From positions 20,236-84,235 of the IMG/VR virus record IMGVR_UViG_3300050821_007696: 64,000 bases of DNA; one strand, 5' to 3'. Within the stretch, counting starts at the first letter, position 1. The number at the start of each line of letters is the position of its first letter. The notes under the pieces were generated by a model. The model did not search any database, was not told the origin of the DNA, and saw nothing but the letters and a program-made list of their open reading frames with translations. Source of the stretch: a virus. Shown in pieces: positions 3,557 to 64,000 of the stretch. A program made the translations under genes and the position numbers.

Positions 3557-4144
3557 GTGACCGGAGTCCAGGCGCTCACTATCACCCCCGACCCTGACCT
3601 GCCGTTCCTGTCAGCTGCCGCGGTGATCCGCGACGTCCAGAAGACCGAGCACCAGTGGTTCAGCCAGGGTGACCCGGCGTCCCCGACCCTGCCCTGGATG
3701 CCGTTCCAGCCGGCTGACTTCCTGTCGATCCTCTTCGAGTGCATCCCCGAGCTGACGGGCCGGGGCTTCCTTGACGTCGGGTGCGGCCCCGGCACCAAGA
3801 TGCTCCTGGCCCGTCACTTTTACGGGCTGAACGCCTGCGGCATCGAGATCGTGCCGGCGATGGCGAAGGCGGCTGGGCAGTACGGCGACGTCTGGAACGA
3901 CGACGCTCTCCAGATGCCTCCCGGCGCCTACGCCTCGTGGGACCTGGTCTGGCTGTACCGGCCGTTCCGCGACCGGCTGCTGGAAGAGCAGCTCGAAGCT
4001 CGCATCATGGACGAGATGCAGCCCGGCGCGATCCTGGCCGGCGGAGGCTGGGAGCTGTGCCCGGCGGCGGTCGGCTGGCCGCCCGTGATGGATGACTGGG
4101 AACTGCGGCGCGGTGCCTGGATGAAGCCTACGATGCAGTCATGA
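3557..4144 (+). CDS. Class I SAM-dependent methyltransferase
   Basis: FLDVGCGPG motif I, GIEI, YRPF. Confidence 0.8.
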   Translation: MTGVQALTITPDPDLPFLSAAAVIRDVQKTEHQWFSQGDPASPTLPWMPFQPADFLSILFECIPELTGRGFLDVGCGPGTKMLLARHFYGLNACGIEIVPAMAKAAGQYGDVWNDDALQMPPGAYASWDLVWLYRPFRDRLLEEQLEARIMDEMQPGAILAGGGWELCPAAVGWPPVMDDWELRRGAWMKPTMQS

Positions 4145-9475: not shown

Positions 9476-9537
9476 CCCCGTCTGGCGTTGACCCCATGGG
9501 GCTCCGTTATGTCTATGGCCAGCGGGGTGTGTGACAG

Positions 9538-16010: not shown

Positions 16011-16164
16011 CAGCGCTGCCGGGCGTTCGCCAATTGGCATTCGTGCTTACATTGGCCCGGCGGCGCTGTCTCATGCAGCACCAGTCCCCGTAGTGTTTGT
16101 TCCGAACGCCGCGGCCTGACCTCAGGAGCCGGTCCGATCCAGCTTTTGAGGAGATGGCGGCGGC

Positions 16165-21180: not shown

Positions 21181-21258
21181 CCGCTGCGGGCGTATCCGTT
21201 GTAGGTTGCGTGAGTATTGTGGCCCGCGTGACAGCCAGCGTGACTGTAGTATATGTGT

Positions 21259-44142: not shown

Positions 44143-44352
44143 CCGCCAGCCGGGCCATGTTAGGGACGTAACCCAGTGAGGCCGCGCCCGGCTGGCGGGG
44201 ACACGATCAGGACGCCGCCCAATAAGGCAACGCCCCGCCCCGGACCCGGTTGCAAACGGGTGCGAATCCCGTGCTGCAGGCAGCGGTGACAGTCCGTGCC
44301 AGCCGGATGCGACGGCCGCTCTCCAAGCCTCCGGGGAGCGGCCGTTGCCGTC

Positions 44353-56928: not shown

Positions 56929-57002
56929 ATGACATCGGGGGACTTGAACCCCCAATACCCGGTTCCGAATACCGGTGCGTTTTCCGATTACGCTAGGTGT
57001 CG
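56929..57002 (-). tRNA. tRNA-Arg(TCG), atypical acceptor stem
   Basis: CCGGT-AT-TCG-GA-ACCGG anticodon arm; GGGGG-TTCAAGT-CCCCC T arm; two C-A mismatches in the acceptor stem. Confidence 0.65.
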
Positions 57003-57008
57003 GTTGGC

Positions 57009-57146
57009 GTCTTCGTGATCGTTGAGGTGCAGCCGCTCTTCCGAGGGGTGATGCTCTGCCAGCTGAGCTACGCCCCGATGCTGGACGGGGCGCGGGGGGT
57101 CGAACCCCGGACCTTCACCTTGACGTAACTGCCCTCGCGGGAAGAC
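57009..57146 (-). ncRNA. Circularly permuted tRNA-like RNA (YrlA/Y-RNA-like)
   Basis: Order on the minus strand: GGTGA, T arm, CGCCCCG, loop TCCAGCAT, CGGGGCG, D arm, TCACC. The flanks pair into an extended bulged stem. Confidence 0.8.
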
Positions 57147-57266
57147 CTGAAGGCTAACGGCTCGAAGGACAAGGAGCGAACGGCTGAGCAGCACGGCTCC
57201 CGGCTAACGGCTGATGCTAGGTCCTTACAGGAGTAACACTACCGCACGCCGGGCGCACGCGCAAAC

Positions 57267-58031
57267 TTACGGCCGCCGCAGCCACTCGAAGATCGCCGCG
57301 CCCTCGTTCAGCTGGGTGACCTGCGCCGAGTTCGCCTCTTCCCTCGCCATCTTCACCGCGGTCCGCAGCTGCGACAGCCGGTCGGTCAGCTGCGCCTTCC
57401 GTTCGGCGGGCAGCGCACCCGAGTAGTTCACCGTGGTGGTGTACTCGACGACCTCGTCGCGGGTCATCACGTCCACGATCTCCTGGAACTTGTCGGTGCC
57501 GTTGCCGCGGTGCCAGTTGAACGGCACCTTCTCCTTGCGGTCGCCTTCCTTCTCGGCCGACTTCCACTGGCCCGGCTCGACGTTCTCCGTCGTCCAGGTC
57601 TGCGCCCCGTCGAGCACCGGGATGCCCGCGACCAGCGTCAGCAGCTTGCCGATCTCGCCCTCCAGGTACACCAGGTGACGTACCGGGACGTCGTGCAGCA
57701 GCACCTCGCCGTCTACGGTGACGTCCGCCTTCGCGGCGCCCTGCGCGGTGTCCAGCGTCAGCGCCAGGTCCCAGCCCTGGGTCAGCACCTTCTCCGCGTC
57801 GGCCAGTGCCTGTCCGGCGGTGTACCGGACCTTGGTCACCTGGGGAGGCGTAGCACGCCGCCGCTGCCGGTTCTTCTCCTCGCCGTCCGGGTCGGTCAGC
57901 CGGGACGTCTTGACCAGGCCCGTCATCAGGGTCTCACTGTGCGCGGCCTGGGTCAGCCGGGTTACAGCCGCGTCGGTCTCGGCCTTGACGCCGCCGATAA
58001 CCGCGAGCAGCTGGTGAATGCGAACAGCCAT
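57267..58031 (-). CDS. Conserved actinobacterial/phage protein (DUF7873-like)
   Basis: IHQLLAV..GVK, A.ADVTVDG.VL..DVPV..L.YLE and SGALP...L..AVK.AREEAN motifs, recognised from memory of Streptomyces homologues. Confidence 0.65.
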   Translation of the reverse strand: MAVRIHQLLAVIGGVKAETDAAVTRLTQAAHSETLMTGLVKTSRLTDPDGEEKNRQRRRATPPQVTKVRYTAGQALADAEKVLTQGWDLALTLDTAQGAAKADVTVDGEVLLHDVPVRHLVYLEGEIGKLLTLVAGIPVLDGAQTWTTENVEPGQWKSAEKEGDRKEKVPFNWHRGNGTDKFQEIVDVMTRDEVVEYTTTVNYSGALPAERKAQLTDRLSQLRTAVKMAREEANSAQVTQLNEGAAIFEWLRRP

Positions 58032-58170
58032 GCCTTTCTCCTTCTTCCTAGTTCCCGCCCTTGCAGACGCACATAACGCACGTGCACTTGCACTTAGCGG
58101 GGCACGAGCACTGGATCGTGCTTACCGTCGCCCCGCAGCAGCTGTCCTTCGTCGTACTTTCCTTCCGGTT

Positions 58171-58298
58171 CAGCGGCGCAGACAGACTGGGTACCGCGTG
58201 TCAAGTAGCCGCCGGCGGCGTTGTCAAGTCGGGCCTCGTGGGTTAAGTGACCGCCGGCGGTGTAGCCAAGTTAGGTTTCGCGCGGTGAATGTCCGCCG
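58171..58298 (-). repeat. Orphan TIGR-like mini-array (3 units)
   Basis: Six exact 9-nt spacers separated by alternating 9-nt loop repeats and 15-nt edge repeats matching the arrays at 62-64 kb. Confidence 0.75.
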
Positions 58299-58360
58299 TG
58301 CGTGGAACCGCCGCCCCGCGACGGCTCTGGGGAAGACGGCCGGGCCGCGGGACGGCGGAG

Positions 58361-58432
58361 AGCCTCGTCGCGGGATTGAACCGCGGACCTTCGCCTTACC
58401 ATGGCGGCGCTCTGCCACTGAGCTAACGAGGC
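58361..58432 (-). tRNA. tRNA-Thr(GGT)
   Basis: GCCTCGT/ACGAGGC acceptor stem; AT-GGT-AA loop; GGTTCAATCC T arm. Confidence 0.9.
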
Positions 58433-58718
58433 GCAACCGGGCGGGGGTGCTGCCACTGTGGGGGACGCTGCGGATAATGTCCCCGCCCGGGTCGCGGGTT
58501 ACAGAACGGGGGCGGTGTCCTGGGCGTACGGACCGGTGCCGAGGTCGAAACCGGGGTAAGCCCACCCGCTGATGACGCCCTGGTCCAGTGCCCGGTCGAA
58601 GGTCATCAGCGCCTGGCGGTGCGCGCCGCAGCCGGAGCACTGCTCCTGGTCCGCCCGGACGATGTGGGAACAGTTGCGGCAGTAGCCGTGGCCCTGCCCG
58701 GTGTGCTCGTAGCACATG

Positions 58719-59402
58719 TCAGTTTTCTCCTTCGGTTGCCGGTGCTTCTTCTCCCGACTCGCCGAGAGAACGTTCCTCCAGCGAGAGGTCGTAGCTGCCC
58801 GCCGCTGCCGCGGCCGAGGCGACCGGGGCACGGGACAGGTAGTCCGAAGACATCTTCCAGGCGTTGCGCTGCCCGGTGTTCGACGAGACCGTGTTCACCG
58901 ACAGGCCGCTGCGGGTGCCGATCCTGGCGCCCTCGTCGAAGGCCGCCTGCCCGCAGCCCATGTACAGCACCCGCCAGCCGTAAGCGTCCTGCTGGTGCTC
59001 AAGCGCCTCTTTCGCCTCGGGGCCGTCGTGCTCCACCCAGGTGTTGTGCTCGCCGTCGCTGTCGATCACCACGGTGACGTCCTCGGGCCGCTGGTCCCCG
59101 GGCAGCTCCGCGAGCTTGCGGCCCTCGGCGGCGACCGCCAGCACGACCGCGTCGTACAGGTTGGTGCCGCCGCGCGGCCGGATCTGGTAGCCGCGGACCG
59201 CTTCCGGGGTCTCGAAGGAGTGCACGCAGCGGATCTCGGTGTCGAAGTCCCACAGGCTGACCGTCACCTTGCCAGTACGGTGCGAGTCGCCTTCCGCAGC
59301 CAGGAACTCGTCGAGGCCGGCCTGCGCGCCCTCCAGGATCTTCTCCATGCTGCCCGACCGGTCCTGGATGACGACCCGGTGCCGGTAGCCCTTGCGCGTC
59401 AT
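58719..59402 (-). CDS. vWA-domain protein
   Basis: DRSGSM MIDAS motif, GGTNLYDA, SDGEHN. Confidence 0.85.
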   Translation of the reverse strand: MTRKGYRHRVVIQDRSGSMEKILEGAQAGLDEFLAAEGDSHRTGKVTVSLWDFDTEIRCVHSFETPEAVRGYQIRPRGGTNLYDAVVLAVAAEGRKLAELPGDQRPEDVTVVIDSDGEHNTWVEHDGPEAKEALEHQQDAYGWRVLYMGCGQAAFDEGARIGTRSGLSVNTVSSNTGQRNAWKMSSDYLSRAPVASAAAAAGSYDLSLEERSLGESGEEAPATEGEN

Positions 59403-59728
59403 TTCTTCTCCTTCGCCTTCTTTACCTTGCGCCCGCAGTAGGAGTAGTGCTCCTGGTTGCGCTTCCTCTTGGCGAGGCGGCGACGCGCGTCGTGCCCCAG
59501 CCCGTTACGGGAGGAGTGCATCGGCCTGTGGTGGCGCCGCTTGCGCTCCGGGTTACTGCCGTCCATTCGTGGCATTGCTTCCGGCTGACGCGCCGGCGGG
59601 CGGTGAGTGGTGAAGAAGGGTGCAGGCCCCCGCGCCAACGAGAGCCTGCCGTTCCTCTAATCCCCTAGAGAGGCGACGGGCCGGGTGCAATTGCCTCTTG
59701 GGGAGTTCTGCTCCGGCCCGTCGTGCTC

Positions 59729-59756
59729 AGCTTACCTGTGTCCTGCTGTGCGTCAA
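59729..59756 (-). promoter_or_regulatory. Candidate sigma70-type promoter TTGACG-N16-TAAGCT
   Basis: Intergenic; resembles actinobacterial housekeeping promoters. Confidence 0.4.
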
Positions 59757-59826
59757 ACGGTAATCCGTGATCATCAGTGCGGGGCGTGACTAAATTGGTG
59801 CGCGTTACGCTGTTGGCCCCCTTGCG

Positions 59827-59899
59827 CGGTGGCGACGGGACTCGGACCCGCGATCGCTTCCTCGACAGGGAAGTGCCCTGGCCGCTGGGCTACGCCACC
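59827..59899 (-). tRNA. tRNA-Asp(GTC), atypical T loop
   Basis: GGTGGCG/CGCCACC acceptor stem; CTTCC-CT-GTC-GA-GGAAG anticodon arm; T loop TCCGAGT. Confidence 0.8.
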
Positions 59900-59909
59900 A
59901 TGACCACCT

Positions 59910-60038
59910 TCAGACCGACGACTGGAACCGTCCCGGCTGCGTCTCCGGCACGGGCAGGTCCAGGGCGAGCATCCGCGCTAGTTCTTCCAGGGGCACCGCC
60001 GCCAGCTCGCCGAGGGGGATGTCCGCTGTCTCGTCCAT
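59910..60038 (-). CDS. FxSxx-COOH RiPP-precursor-like peptide (42 aa, not in the ORF track)
   Basis: MDETADIPLGELAAVPLEELARMLALDLPVPETQPGRFQSSV*; GAGAGGA RBS. Confidence 0.65.
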   Translation of the reverse strand: MDETADIPLGELAAVPLEELARMLALDLPVPETQPGRFQSSV

Positions 60039-60052
60039 GCCTGTCCTCTCTC

Positions 60053-60068
60053 AGTGCCAGCTGGCACT
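60053..60068. promoter_or_regulatory. 16-bp palindrome, copy 7
   Basis: Exact match touching the TGA of a minus-strand Cys-rich ORF. Confidence 0.75.
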
Positions 60069-60220
60069 CAGTACCGCGGCGTGCAGTTGTAATGGCACCG
60101 GTTGCCGTGCTGGTAGCAGTGCCGGTTCTTCTGCCTGTCGCAGCAGTTGCAGGTGCAGATACCCGCGCTGTCGCAGTTCACCTTCGCCGTTACCTCGTTC
60201 ACGCCTGCTCTCCCTTGCCG

Positions 60221-60294
60221 TTGCGGAGCCTGGATTTGAACCAGGGGCCTCCGGGTTATGAGCCCGGCGCGCTGCCGAACTGCGCCACCCCGCA
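60221..60294 (-). tRNA. tRNA-Met(CAT), initiator-like
   Basis: CCGGG-CT-CAT-AA-CCCGG with three G-C pairs; U1-A72 instead of C1xA72. Confidence 0.85.
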
Positions 60295-60370
60295 CCGTAT
60301 CCCTGCGGCGTCCGGGAACGCCCGCCGCAGGGCACAACATCACCTTACTCCTGTCCCGCACGAGCCGCAG

Positions 60371-60571
60371 TCAGTCTTCCACCGTGTAGGTGTCCGTTGC
60401 CTGCGGCCCGTTCGCCACGGTCACTTTCTTCGCCCCGGCCCGCAGCTGGGACAGCACCTGCTCCGCGTACTCCTCCGTCGCGCTGACTTCCAGTTCGGCC
60501 GCCAGCTCGTCCAGGGAGTACCAGGTCTCCGGGTCGTCCTCGAACCCGTTGGACGTCACCAGGATTCTCAC
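60371..60571 (-). CDS. Small acidic hypothetical protein
   Basis: GGAGG RBS; GTGA overlap with the upstream gene. Confidence 0.5.
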   Translation of the reverse strand: MRILVTSNGFEDDPETWYSLDELAAELEVSATEEYAEQVLSQLRAGAKKVTVANGPQATDTYTVED

Positions 60572-61587
60572 TCGCCGTCCTCCTTCCGGGTACCCGCGCC
60601 CGCGGCGATCTTCTCGCGCAGGGCCAGCAGCTGGGACATGTCGCCGCGTTCCATCGCCTCGCGGGCGGTGCGCAGCTGGTGGCGGGTCATCGTGCCCGCG
60701 TCCGGCGGCAGGAAGTCCGGCACGTTCGCGGCCGGGAAGTACAGCGACCCGTCGCGGCGCCGCTCGAATCCCGGGTTCACCCGCGTGTAGCCGGCCCCGG
60801 TGACATTCTTGTTCCAGGACGTGGCGTAGGCGTAGAACTCCATCAGCCGCCGGTCGGCCGGGCGCCGGTCGCGCTTGACGCCGTTCATCAGCCAGTTGCG
60901 CAGCGCCATCGCGGGATCGCCCTTGACCAGGTTCTCGCCGTGGCGGACCTTCTCCCAGAACGGGTCCACGGTGAACGTGCCGTCCTCCGCGACCGACCCG
61001 GTGCGCCACACGGCGAAGGCCGCCCAGCTCGGGTTGGCGTGCACCGCCCGGTACAGTGCCTCCCCGGCGTGAATCGACTTCATCACCGCGTCGCTGTTCA
61101 GGTGCGCGTTCTTGGCCTGCTGGGTGACCGGGTACCGGCTCGGGTTGCGGATGCCCTCGACCCCGTAGCCCTCGTACAGGGCCATGTACCGGGTCAGCAC
61201 CGACTGGCGCTTGTAGTCGGGCACCTCGCCCATGCGGAGCATGTCCGCGTAGGTGCGCTTGCGGCCGGTGTCGATGTACTCCGCCGCCTCGTCGCGCACG
61301 CCGTAGATGAACAGCATCCACGCGCTGATCCCGGTGTTGACCACCGCCTGGAACCGGTGCTGGGCGTCGTAGGACGCCGGGCTGTCCGGGTCGGCGTCCA
61401 TGAACACCGGGCTGATCTCCGGCCACCACGAGTCAGACTTCAGGTTCTCCTCCTGGAGCCCCACCTCCATCCGCGACCTGCTGCGGTTGGGGTGCATCGT
61501 CTCCAGCAGCTCTTTCGCTATCTCCGGTGTCACCAGGACTTCCTCCGTGCGGAAGCCCGGCGGGAATCCCCTGCTCTGTCGGGACAT
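60568..61587 (-). CDS. ParB/Srx-like (DGQHR-type) N-terminal domain protein
   Basis: VTPEIAKELL...NR and YDAQHRFQAV...IDTGRKRT..D motifs; GAGGAG RBS before ATG 61587. Confidence 0.6.
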   Translation of the reverse strand: MSRQSRGFPPGFRTEEVLVTPEIAKELLETMHPNRSRSRMEVGLQEENLKSDSWWPEISPVFMDADPDSPASYDAQHRFQAVVNTGISAWMLFIYGVRDEAAEYIDTGRKRTYADMLRMGEVPDYKRQSVLTRYMALYEGYGVEGIRNPSRYPVTQQAKNAHLNSDAVMKSIHAGEALYRAVHANPSWAAFAVWRTGSVAEDGTFTVDPFWEKVRHGENLVKGDPAMALRNWLMNGVKRDRRPADRRLMEFYAYATSWNKNVTGAGYTRVNPGFERRRDGSLYFPAANVPDFLPPDAGTMTRHQLRTAREAMERGDMSQLLALREKIAAGAGTRKEDGE

Positions 61588-61678
61588 GCTTTCTCCTCTT
61601 TCACTGAGAGTCACTGACAGGCATAACATGCCATGCGTAACATCTATTCCTCGTCCGGGCAGCTGCCCTCAGCAGGGC

Positions 61679-61975
61679 TCACCCGTGCTCTTTCCCGTAA
61701 TTCACGCCGTACAGGAACGCGTCGCGCGCCTCGGTTTTCTCCGGTGCGGTGTCGTCATAGCCCTCGCAGTGCGTCTCCCGCCAGTACTCCTCGAACGCTG
61801 CCTCCAGGCCGAACGGCTGCCCGTCGGCGCGCTCCAGGTTCGTGACCTTCAGGGTGTACCCGCCGGAACTCAGCCGCACGGGATTGGCGCCGGCGCGAGT
61901 CATCGCGGCTAGGGTGCCGTCCGGGTCCTCGCCGGACACCGTCACCTTCAGGTCCAGCGTCTTCGTCCTGCTCAT
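61679..61975 (-). CDS. Hypothetical protein
   Basis: AGGAGG RBS and ATG at 61975, immediately after the array. Confidence 0.6.
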   Translation of the reverse strand: MSRTKTLDLKVTVSGEDPDGTLAAMTRAGANPVRLSSGGYTLKVTNLERADGQPFGLEAAFEEYWRETHCEGYDDTAPEKTEARDAFLYGVNYGKEHG

Positions 61976-62000
61976 GCTCTTCCTCCTTTTCTCTCGTTCC

Positions 62001-62545
62001 TGTGCCCGGCGTATTCCACGTGGCTGCCGCAGGGGTGACGGCCGGGCGTTATTACCGATGGCTGCCGTAGCAGGTACGGCCCGGCGCCTGCAAGCTGGTG
62101 CTCGTTTTCGAAGTGGCCGGGCGGCGTTACACACTGGGGTCGCGCGCCATGTTTGGCCGCCCGGCGTTATTCGCTTGGTGCCCGCAGATCTTGTGGCCGG
62201 GCGTTTCCAGCTTGGCTCCCGCTGATTCAGTGGCCCGGCGTACTTACGATGGAGCTGCCGTGCTTCGATTGGCCGGGCCGGGGCGTCTGTCGCGTGGTTC
62301 CCGTTATGAGGATGTCCCCTCTGCCCTGGCGTTCCTTCCATTGAGCCCTGTCCTGAGATTGGCCGGGCCGGGGCGTCTATCGCGTGGTTCCCGCTGCTCG
62401 TATGTCCCCTCTGCCCTGGCGTCTCGCCTTCGGTTCCCGTTTCCGTTACAGCCGGGCGGGGCGTACCCGCGATGGCTCCCGTGACCTACTCGGCCCCCTG
62501 CCCCGGCGTTACCCACACTGGGCCGCGTCTCCACATTGGCCAGGG
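62001..62545 (-). repeat. TIGR-like array downstream of tas (about 13 dual-spacer units)
   Basis: Units of edge repeat (10-19 nt), 9-nt spacer, loop repeat (mostly 9 nt, CGGGAACCA-like on the minus strand) and 9-nt spacer. Confidence 0.85.
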
Positions 62546-62557
62546 CAGGGAAACCCC

Positions 62558-63463
62558 TCAGCTGTGCAGCCCGCCCCCGGTCCGGTGCCTGCCCCGGCGC
62601 CTGCCCTCCTCGCCCGCCCGGCTCGCGCCGAACACCGGCTCCTGCCCCCCGGCCGTCAGCCACAGGTCCCGCAGGATCTCCTTCGCCGTGTGCCGCAGCG
62701 CGATCGCGTGCACGTGCGAGGGCTGAAACGGGTCGCCCGCCTCGGCGTAGCCCATCTTCGCCTTCTCCCGCTCGGCCAGCTCGCCGTAGAACTGCCCCGA
62801 GGTGTCCTGCGGGCGGGTCTTGCACTTGACGTACAGCGCCCCGGAGAACCCGCCCTCGCACTTCACCGAGTGCACCTTCAGCGCGTACTTCTCCTTCACC
62901 CGGTCGTACACGTGCCGGTACCCGGTGCCGCCCTTCGCGTTCGACTTCACCTGCGCCGACGCCAGCAGGTAGCCCAGCTTCTTCGCGTCGGGGCGGCCGT
63001 TCGCCATCAGTGCCTCCGCGTCCCCCTTCACGTCCCGGTTCTTCGGGGCGCCGCGGCCGGTGTACTGCCACAGCTGGCTCAGCATCCGCGGGTGCGGCTC
63101 GTCGTCCACCAGGTGCCGGTCGCTGCCGGTCCCCTCCCAGTGCCTCGGGTACGCCATCCGCGGGTCGCCGGTGATGCCCAGCAGCCGCGCCAGGGTGTGC
63201 TCCCCGATCCCCGGGGTCTCCCGCGCCCAGCTCTGCACCGTCTCCGGCACCGTCACCCGGTAGCAGGCCAGCAGCTCCTTCTCCGTCCGCTTCTCCGCCT
63301 CGGCGTACAGGTCCGCGACCGGCCCCAGGGCCTCGGTCGCGACCGTCCCCGACCGCTCCTTGTTGTCGAACGCGATCCGCGCGGCCTGCGCGTCCGCGAA
63401 CGCCTCCGCCCACATCCGCAGCTCCGCGTACGAGCCCGGGTTGGTGCGCTTCGGTGTCCTCAT
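62558..63463 (-). CDS. tasA: TasA-like Nop/IS110-related RNA-binding protein without a nuclease domain (301 aa)
   Basis: AGGAGG RBS and ATG at 63463; N-terminal coiled coil, TPGIGEHTLARLLG, SQLWQYTG, HAIALRHTAKEILRDLW; no DEDD RuvC or HNH domain; flanked by dual-spacer arrays. Confidence 0.8.
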   Translation of the reverse strand: MRTPKRTNPGSYAELRMWAEAFADAQAARIAFDNKERSGTVATEALGPVADLYAEAEKRTEKELLACYRVTVPETVQSWARETPGIGEHTLARLLGITGDPRMAYPRHWEGTGSDRHLVDDEPHPRMLSQLWQYTGRGAPKNRDVKGDAEALMANGRPDAKKLGYLLASAQVKSNAKGGTGYRHVYDRVKEKYALKVHSVKCEGGFSGALYVKCKTRPQDTSGQFYGELAEREKAKMGYAEAGDPFQPSHVHAIALRHTAKEILRDLWLTAGGQEPVFGASRAGEEGRRRGRHRTGGGLHS

Positions 63464-63478
63464 GCTGTTCCTCCTGTT

Positions 63479-64000
63479 TGCCCGGCGGCGTAAAGCCCTT
63501 GGTTTCCGTACCTGGTACGGCCGCCTGGCGTGTTCGGTGCTGAGCCTTGTTATCCTGCTGGCCGGCGGCGCTGGCATCTTGGGTACCGCCTAGCGTGTAG
63601 CCGCCTGGCGTGCCTGTTCTGGTCCTCGTGCAACATGTGGCCGGCGGCGTTTAGTGATTGGCTTCCGTCAGTTCGCTAGCCGCCCGGCGTGTCTCATTTA
63701 GTTTCCGCTGAACCGATAGCCGGCGGCGCCTGATCCACGGTTCTCGCCCTTCCACTGGCCGCCCGGCGTTCGATGTTCGGCTGTCGCGTAAACGGTGGCC
63801 TGGCGGCGCTGATCCTCTGGCTCCCGCGTTTTCGGTTTAGCCGCCCGGCGTATTTTCTCTGGTCCGCGTCGGGACTGTGGCCGGCGGCGTCCGGATGGTG
63901 GTTTCCGTCACTATATTGGCCGCCTGGCGCTTCCCCAGCGGGGCTCGTCTCCGTTCATAGCCGGCGGCGTCGCGATAGTGGTTCCCGTCATTAGACTGGC
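63479..64000 (-). repeat. TIGR-like array upstream of tas (at least 13 units, runs off the window)
   Basis: Period about 40 nt; plus strand TGGCCGGCGGCG or TAGCCGCCYGGCG, N9, TGGTTTCCG-like, N9. Confidence 0.9.

Follow-up and report, generated by a model that had tools for sequence, protein, structure and literature searches.

Promoter-like hexamers in the guides of a virus-borne TIGR-TasA locus follow from spacer composition

Introduction

A true promoter signature in the guides of nuclease-free TIGR-Tas systems would have been the first clue to their natural targets. A first-pass annotation suggested such a signature in a window of 64,000 nucleotides, the last 64 kb of the 84,235-bp virus record IMGVR_UViG_3300050821_007696, which has a GC content of 68.1% and most likely belongs to a soil actinophage-like virus. 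The window carries arrays of dual-spacer guide units on both sides of tasA, a gene for a Tas protein without a nuclease domain, and the annotation read hexamers resembling the −10 promoter element in the joined spacers as a sign that this protein acts as a CRISPR interference (CRISPRi)-like repressor of host-defense or competitor-phage promoters. Are these guides aimed at promoters? The hexamers are no more frequent than in controls of like composition, and we consider it likely that this is a TIGR-TasA locus whose guides are under a compositional constraint, with the promoter-like hexamers as by-products and the targets lying elsewhere. TIGR-Tas was described in 2025, when a block of transcription or replication by TasA was already proposed (Faure et al., Science 2025, PMC12045711), and a preprint of September 2026 (Xu et al., bioRxiv 10.64898/2026.09.09.750476) reports that TasA and dead TasR bind DNA and bring about reversible RNA-guided repression of reporters and of a chromosomal gene, and states that the natural targets of the TIGR family are not known.

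Guide units and their joined targets

Parsing of the minus strand of the window gave 29 units (13 + 13 + 2 + 1), the same count as in the first-pass annotation, in the following features around tasA:

63479–64000, minus strand: TIGR array 1, 13 dual-spacer units, with its 5′ end cut by the contig end and its last unit 15 nt ahead of the tas start
62558–63463, minus strand: tasA (P0001), encoding a Tas protein of 301 amino acids (aa) without a nuclease domain (coding 62561–63463, stop codon 62558–62560)
62000–62553, minus strand: TIGR array 2, 13 units from the tas stop codon to the next gene
59785–59816, minus strand: a solo tigRNA unit 9 nt 3′ of tRNA-Asp (59826–59899, minus strand), whose flanks GGGGG and CCCC can pair
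58177–58250, minus strand: mini-array 3, two units between a DUF7873 gene and tRNA-Thr

The two large arrays adjoin tas on its own strand, array 1 ahead of the ATG and array 2 just past the stop codon; the end of array 1 is followed by 15 nt and then by an AGGAGG ribosome-binding site and the ATG of the 301-aa gene. Each unit, 39–42 nt long, runs on the minus strand from a box C through the 9-nt spacer A, a loop, the 9-nt spacer B and a CG to a GC-rich edge. We take the minus strand to be the transcribed one, since this order of boxes agrees with that given by Faure et al. 2025 (PMC12045711), where a box C (CCA) precedes each spacer and a box D follows it. Ahead of spacer A, box C reads CCA in 15 units, CTA in six and another triplet in eight. 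The loop, CG-N4-6-CCA, is 9–11 nt long, with a constant CG start and a CCA end in most units, and the box D position is occupied in all units by CG, never by UG, which we count as a sequence variant of the motif.

The edges of array 1 alternate between two mutually complementary GC-rich forms, with neighboring units sharing one edge, and those of array 2 are of variable length (10–21 nt) and make unit-specific stems. Within a unit the two flanks are complementary and covary. Flank pair 4 forms in 100% of cases (15 C-G, 13 G-C), whereas flanks combined from different units give 48%; the mean contiguous flank stem is 4.96 bp against 3.09 bp in the same comparison. The spacers themselves have one invariant feature, a purine at position 9 (A in 41 and G in 17 of 58). 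Because both spacers have this purine fixed, joining spacer A to the reverse complement of spacer B, abbreviated A+rc(B), always places a purine next to a pyrimidine (R|Y in 29/29 targets), and in 16/29 the join is A|T.

The A+rc(B) join had been used in the first-pass annotation, and, by analogy with TasR, it is the geometry that fits what is published. In each strand the cut is reported to fall 5′ of the base opposite the fifth guide nucleotide past box C, leaving 8-nt 3′ overhangs (Faure et al. 2025, PMC12045711), and we adopt A+rc(B) because no other geometry satisfies both the cut rule and the overhang length.

Promoter-like hexamers and their controls

The four hexamers quoted in the first-pass annotation are real: they come from the units at 63600, 63561, 63520 and 63919, joined as A+rc(B), with three running across the join. 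As a promoter signature they fail, for neither in these 29 units nor in a pool of 90 do such hexamers show an excess over mispaired, shuffled and column-permuted controls. We counted 13 TANNNT sites, in 10 of the 29 targets, against 11.3 with mispaired spacers (P 0.26), 13.6 with a within-spacer shuffle (P 0.59) and 12.7 with column permutation (P 0.49). Sites agreeing with TATAAT in at least five of six positions number six in the 29 targets, against 6.0 (P 0.64), 4.2 (P 0.25) and 4.3 (P 0.26) in the same three controls, and a perfect TATAAT occurs in none of them. Join-spanning TANNNT sites come to eight, against 6.3–6.8 expected, and the TANNNT and near-TATAAT tests in the window gave P values of 0.10–0.64 throughout, with no enrichment. 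The first-pass annotation had itself staked its promoter inference on a comparison with shuffled controls; because, at the level of hexamer content, the targets do not pass it, that inference is unsupported.

Pooling the units of three phages, this one and two relatives described below (G001 and G002), leads to the same result. The 90 units hold 39 TANNNT sites against 38.9 under column permutation (P 0.50); the figure for mispaired spacers is 32.6 (P 0.036), a difference that does not survive the number of tests. Near-TATAAT sites in the pool number 12, against 11.3 and 16.2 in two controls, with P 0.88 for column permutation, and among all 5-mers and 6-mers in the spacers none exceeds the null maximum. 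Other join geometries yield fewer TA-type hexamers (7–8 TANNNT sites); A+rc(B) yields more across its join because the position-9 purine makes that join R|Y and often A|T. The −10-like hexamers are by-products of spacer composition and of this fixed purine. The promoter look is explained by spacers of about 50% GC with a fixed position-9 purine, which counsels caution in reading promoter boxes into short sets of guides.

The promoter model, in which the guides are aimed at the −10 (and perhaps −35) elements of host-defense or competitor-phage genes and TasA is a natural CRISPRi that occludes RNA polymerase, should be weighed with more than the hexamers in view. It is favored by the lack of a nuclease in TasA, by the TasA-type repression seen in reporter assays (Xu et al., bioRxiv 10.64898/2026.09.09.750476), by the small pooled excess of TANNNT over mispaired spacers and by a −35-like motif taken up below; moreover, in a host with a GC content near 68%, it is chiefly in AT-rich intergenic DNA that targets of about 47% GC would be expected. 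Set against these are the equality of the hexamer counts with controls that keep position-specific composition (P 0.49–0.50), pooled near-TATAAT sites at or below expectation, the failure of any k-mer to stand out, the origin of the join hexamers in the position-9 purine and the lack of a target in any DNA scanned. The published repression, further, worked from sites inside coding sequence, so that promoter elements are not required. We regard guidance to promoter elements as very unlikely here. What stands of the CRISPRi-like proposal is its general part: a nuclease-free RNA-guided repressor is plausible by analogy and already published, as repression by other TasA and by dead TasR, and it is the promoters that drop out, there being neither hexamer enrichment nor a target in the DNA scanned.

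Spacer composition

The spacers had been described as visibly more AT-rich than the genome, and this is borne out strongly. The 58 spacers contain 247 G+C in 522 nt (47.3% GC vs 68.1% for the genome), and random genomic sets of 58 9-mers contain 355.8 ± 10.0, with 321 as the lowest of 5000 draws (z about −11). Spacer positions 1–8 stand at 49.6% GC with near-even base use, and the same positions have 49.6, 50.2 and 52.5% GC in three phages of 66–68% GC that have no spacer in common. Spacer GC also lies below locus GC by 5–14 points in 9/9 more distant Tas loci. In predicted ensembles of single units, the mean unpaired probability of spacer bases is 0.567, falling to 0.435 ± 0.027 when 9-mers of genome composition are substituted (0/40 replicates reach the real value). 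Re-dealing the real spacers among the units gives 0.548, and because of this we read the gain in accessibility as an effect of composition.

The low spacer GC is best explained, without recourse to promoters, as a constraint on the guide RNA itself, because it recurs in phages without common spacers and in all nine distant loci and because it keeps the spacers unpaired in thermodynamic prediction. General spacer GC depletion in Tas loci of high GC is a fact of use beyond this locus, as are the complete turnover of spacers between close phages and the lack of targeting of the phage itself, both documented below. Two other regularities were tried and rejected: a purine bias in the spacers is confined to this phage (P 0.009) and absent in two relatives, and palindromic targets, in which spacer A would resemble spacer B, find no support in a Hamming distance of 6.1 vs 6.4.

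TasA and its proposed mode of action

The 301-aa protein is, by its sequence and predicted structure, TasA, the form of Tas that lacks a nuclease, as the first-pass annotation had held. Pfam and single-sequence PDB searches with it returned no match; it matches NCBIfam NF052498 (TIGR_Tas_endo) over residues 15–270 and profile positions 1–213 of 215 (E 7.7e-26; 91.4 bits, just short of the curated cut-off of 100), and a profile built from 41 homologues matches the solved TasR 9mty (E 4e-10) and TasH 21kl (E 3e-8). An AlphaFold2 model (pLDDT 86, pTM 0.81) has an N-terminal helical hairpin (helices 12–38 and 43–71) followed by a C-terminal domain, and a Foldseek search with it places TasH and TasR cryo-EM complexes on top (probability 1.00) and IS110-family recombinases next. 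TasR 9mty residue 118 aligns to residue 24 of the query profile, and the RuvC part of about 95 residues has no counterpart. The coiled coil begins at residue 12, and because the Nop-core model fills residues 15–270 of 301, neither a RuvC nor an HNH domain would fit. Conservation in the family stops at W268, with a non-conserved tail beyond. SpTasH processes its own guides with Y289 and H296, and no conserved Tyr/His pair of this kind was seen in the family alignment.

We infer that the units are expressed and processed, each into a guide RNA closed by its GC-rich stem that would offer two 9-nt spacers set between boxes CCA and CG. A TasA dimer would, by analogy with Tas complexes of solved structure, pair spacer A to one target strand and spacer B to the opposite strand of the adjacent 9-bp half-site. 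Such binding would occur without cutting, because TasA has no nuclease domain, and silencing is its probable outcome. Spacers of about 50% GC could remain single-stranded within a very GC-rich scaffold into which GC-rich ones would tend to be drawn, and an 18-bp site of moderate GC might also be easier to open without a helicase; both would account for the low spacer GC.

Several points weigh against this reading and keep our confidence in it short of firm. DNA binding by the TasA of this phage, and the A+rc(B) geometry in its clade, are assumed by analogy, and the spacer accessibility was predicted thermodynamically for single units free of protein. A guide-composition constraint and a preference for AT-rich targets can both hold: any host target would fall in unusually AT-rich DNA, largely intergenic in actinobacteria, because only 7% of the 18-mers in a genome of 68% GC have nine or fewer G+C. 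TTGAC, the start of the −35 box, is found in 5/236 distinct spacers of the three phages vs 0.95 expected (uncorrected P 0.004), a weak −35-like hint. Finally, CheckV puts the completeness of the 84-kb record at 59%, and the contig stops inside array 1. The spacers with TTGAC lie at 58177–58250 in the window, 79926–80034 in G001 and 108783–108814 in G002.

Relatives

The search for relatives, which was word-limited and bounds the counts accordingly, found 58 homologues, nearly all from soil metagenomes, and 54 loci came from scans of viral and genome collections. Contigs of about 120 kb that were binned with Trebonia metagenome-assembled genomes carry two of the close Tas homologues. Two relatives were fetched whole: G001, complete at 122 kb, with a Tas 76% identical, and G002, of 117 kb, with a Tas 70% identical. 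Both share with the present phage arrays on both sides of tas, alternating complementary edges and the position-9 purine, both have at least 10 solo stem-closed units spread over the genome, and both combine a genome GC of 66–67% with 50.2% and 52.5%, respectively, at spacer positions 1–8. Some traits are specific to this clade: a CG behind the spacers where UG would be usual, the position-9 purine, shared complementary edges and dispersed solo units. No spacer is common to any two of the three phages. The tas match in G002 (G002:C1:94080-94976, minus strand) has one in-frame TAG inside an open frame of 412 codons.

More distant relatives of Tas, about 30% identical, are found in Microbacterium, Nocardioides and Mycobacterium chromosomes (L049 9052–9887, L051 9763–10534 and L054 9733–9970). 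They have four to five stem-loop guides directly upstream of tas or in its 5′ part, with CTT at the stem bases and without the position-9 purine rule.

Array 2 of the present phage holds a duplicated pair of units (62260–62332 and 62350–62422, 86% identical), whose B spacers lie one base apart and whose A spacers are unrelated, and G002 repeats three spacers within its own arrays. Because of these two observations, we suggest that the arrays grow by duplication of units followed by divergence.

Searches for targets

Searches for targets of the guides allowed up to 2–4 mismatches, depending on the run, and gaps of 0–2 bp between the half-sites; TasR is known to tolerate gaps there (Faure et al. 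2025, PMC12045711). The first-pass annotation saw no self-target in the window, and a scan of the whole 84-kb contig agrees, the 29 targets giving four matches (≤3 mismatches) vs 3.8 for mispaired controls. Beyond the contig, viral and bacterial loci that carry Tas, about 1 Mb in all, gave nine matches against about 10 in controls, and 120 guides run against the three whole or near-whole phage genomes, each on itself and on the others, remained at control level. A search free of any geometry, with both half-sites within 40 nt in any orientation, returned 85 matches vs 84–107 in controls. The prophage-borne relatives in Microbacterium, Nocardioides and Mycobacterium show no target within 60–100 kb of tas, and a Microbacterium contig of 2.08 Mb (about half of the genome) shows none at ≤1 mismatch; at two mismatches it has three matches vs 1.25 in controls, all from one GC-rich guide. 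The search for the reconstructed 18-mers that the first-pass annotation called for has thus found no target, at promoters or elsewhere, in the contig, the related phages or the related loci. This contig and two whole related phage genomes show none above controls; the host, or else other mobile DNA, most likely carries the natural targets. A copy of a dispersed 16-bp palindrome lies at 60051–60070, and no guide has an 18-bp target that matches it in the self-target scan (≤2 mismatches).

Foreign elements deserve to be considered here in their own right, since the spacer GC might simply mirror competing phages or plasmids of about 50% GC, whose replication, transcription or inheritance TasA would block. 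The variable spacer positions do stand at 50–52% GC in three phages with wholly different spacers, complete spacer turnover between phages with 70–76% identical Tas is what an arms race would produce, and competition between elements was proposed for TasA by Faure et al. 2025 (PMC12045711). The searches of about 1 Mb of Tas-bearing loci and of two whole related phage genomes, however, gave no match above control level, and low spacer GC extends to prophage-borne relatives in three genera, which a general constraint fits better than a common enemy of low GC; nor is any machinery for spacer acquisition known for TIGR systems (bioRxiv 10.64898/2026.09.09.750476). We consider a mirror of foreign DNA unlikely, though not negligible, as the source of the spacer composition, and retain the constraint on the guide.

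The guides might also act on RNA in box C/D fashion, with single spacers pairing with tRNA, rRNA or mRNA. Nop-domain proteins and C/D-like boxes are common to small nucleolar ribonucleoproteins (PMC12045711), and two sets of units lie among tRNA genes, one of them only 9 nt from tRNA-Asp. Exact single-spacer 9-mers occur in the phage genome 20 times, against 22.4 ± 6.1 for shuffled spacers, and so are neither enriched nor depleted, and none of the spacers pairs over its full length with any of the window's six tRNAs. With TasR inactive on RNA substrates (PMC12045711) and no methyltransferase partner evident, action on RNA appears extremely unlikely, and we keep to DNA as the probable substrate. 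The placement of guide units next to tRNA genes makes it conceivable that they are co-transcribed with the tRNAs and released by tRNA-processing enzymes.

The conserved neighbor and a probable transcription unit

Downstream of array 2 lie two further genes:

61679–61975, minus strand: an open reading frame (ORF) of 98 aa directly downstream of array 2, an open frame behind a GGAGG ribosome-binding site
60568–61587, minus strand: a 339-aa gene, kept beside tas, matching PHROG 5931 (E 5.7e-27)

The 98-aa ORF has no match in Pfam, PHROG or NCBIfam. Homologues of the 339-aa protein share contigs with Tas homologues in at least 11 cases, the gene is also present in G001, and D74, H77 and R78 are invariant in the family (D..HR within a DGQHR-like consensus). 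This short motif makes the protein a possible ParB/DGQHR-like one, a label that the profile searches did not confirm: a search of the genome with Pfam ParB_N (E up to 10) came back empty, and the family drew no ParB match from other Pfam models, from NCBIfam or from PDB profile searches. The 339-aa protein may be a partner of Tas.

If so, the two proteins could together form an RNA-guided loading platform for partition, bridging, spreading or silencing, rather than a simple steric repressor. Such a platform would fit the invariant D..HR and the repeated occurrence of the gene alongside tas, in G001 and on at least 11 independent contigs, and the layout of the locus agrees with the operons of TasA and a ParB-like gene in Faure et al. 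2025 (PMC12045711). The negative ParB profile searches and the basis of the label in a short motif count against it, and we hold the platform to be quite improbable as it stands. Equally improbable, in our estimate, is a broader scheme in which the 30–45 guides of each phage are tuned to AT-rich intergenic DNA of a high-GC actinobacterial host and TasA, perhaps with the 339-aa partner, runs a many-guide program that reshapes or shuts off host transcription.

A single minus-strand transcription unit probably runs from array 1 through tas, array 2 and the 98-aa ORF to the 339-aa gene, because the terminator-like sites in 57000–64000, five in all, lie on the opposite strand.

Relation to known systems

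The locus belongs to the known TIGR-TasA systems, with traits specific to its clade. With TIGR-TasA as described by Faure et al. 2025 (PMC12045711), where TasA operons with a ParB-like gene have arrays upstream, downstream and between the two genes and repeats of 10 nt, it shares a nuclease-free Nop-domain Tas, two 9-nt spacers each behind a CCA box, carriage by a phage, repeats of about 10 nt and arrays that flank tas on both sides and also separate it from a conserved neighbor. It differs in the CG, preceded by a purine, that follows the spacers (UG there), in the length of its units (39–42 nt here, 36 nt there), in complementarily alternating edges that close every unit by a stem, in the solo stemmed units scattered over the genome and in a neighbor without a ParB profile match. 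The constant edge and loop repeats, 36-nt units and C-terminal Tyr/His processing loop that define dual-repeat TIGR arrays are not those of this locus.

The stem-loop TIGR systems of Xu et al. (MbTasA, CsTasR, PateTasR and BlTasA) resemble it in having stem-closed units, a nuclease-free effector and flexible placement of units around tas, and here too a conserved C-terminal Tyr/His loop for processing is not evident, with family conservation ending at W268. Unlike them, the main arrays show no noticed CUU motif or linker (the motif was not counted, and CTT stands at the stem bases of the more distant relatives), adjacent units share one edge, and the carrier is a soil actinophage rather than candidate phyla radiation or gut bacteria; repression, reported there, would apply here by analogy.

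The likeness to dCas9 CRISPRi and to nuclease-free CRISPR effectors (type IV and type V-M) is one of mode, a programmable RNA-guided DNA binder that can block transcription without cutting; TasA is of an unrelated fold, uses two 9-nt guides that read both strands, needs no protospacer adjacent motif and has no known adaptation genes. IS110 and IS621 bridge-RNA recombinases share with TasA the RNA-binding core fold (Foldseek 9t56 E 9e-4, 8wt9 E 1e-2) and dual-loop guides, and differ in their DEDD/RuvC and Tnp catalytic domains and element ends, all lacking here, and in having one bridge RNA where this locus has many guide units.

Dispersed units and other observations

Solo tigRNA-like units with long GC-rich stems of their own are dispersed over the phage genome, far from tas. 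A stem-aware scan of the window gave the following:

44155–44186, plus strand: solo stem-closed tigRNA-like unit with a perfect 13-bp flanking stem (duplex energy −34.3 kcal/mol)
16024–16055, minus strand: solo stem-closed tigRNA-like unit (flank duplex energy −30.1 kcal/mol)
9486–9518, minus strand: solo stem-closed tigRNA-like unit (flank duplex energy −22.1 kcal/mol)
21191–21222, minus strand: a weaker candidate for a solo unit

The same scan found two or three further units upstream of the window, e.g., at 3631–3704 of the genome (plus strand). A blastn search of 60300–64000 against a phage collection gave no match, and the only RNA run that holds DNA of the record, a metatranscriptome stored as contigs, covers 60300–60617, outside the arrays. 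Rfam YrlA (Y RNA-like) matches 57023–57135 on the minus strand, beside tRNA-Arg, with 38.5 bits, short of its gathering threshold (69). The arrays themselves are present in three soil metagenome runs, with zero differences over the stretches covered.

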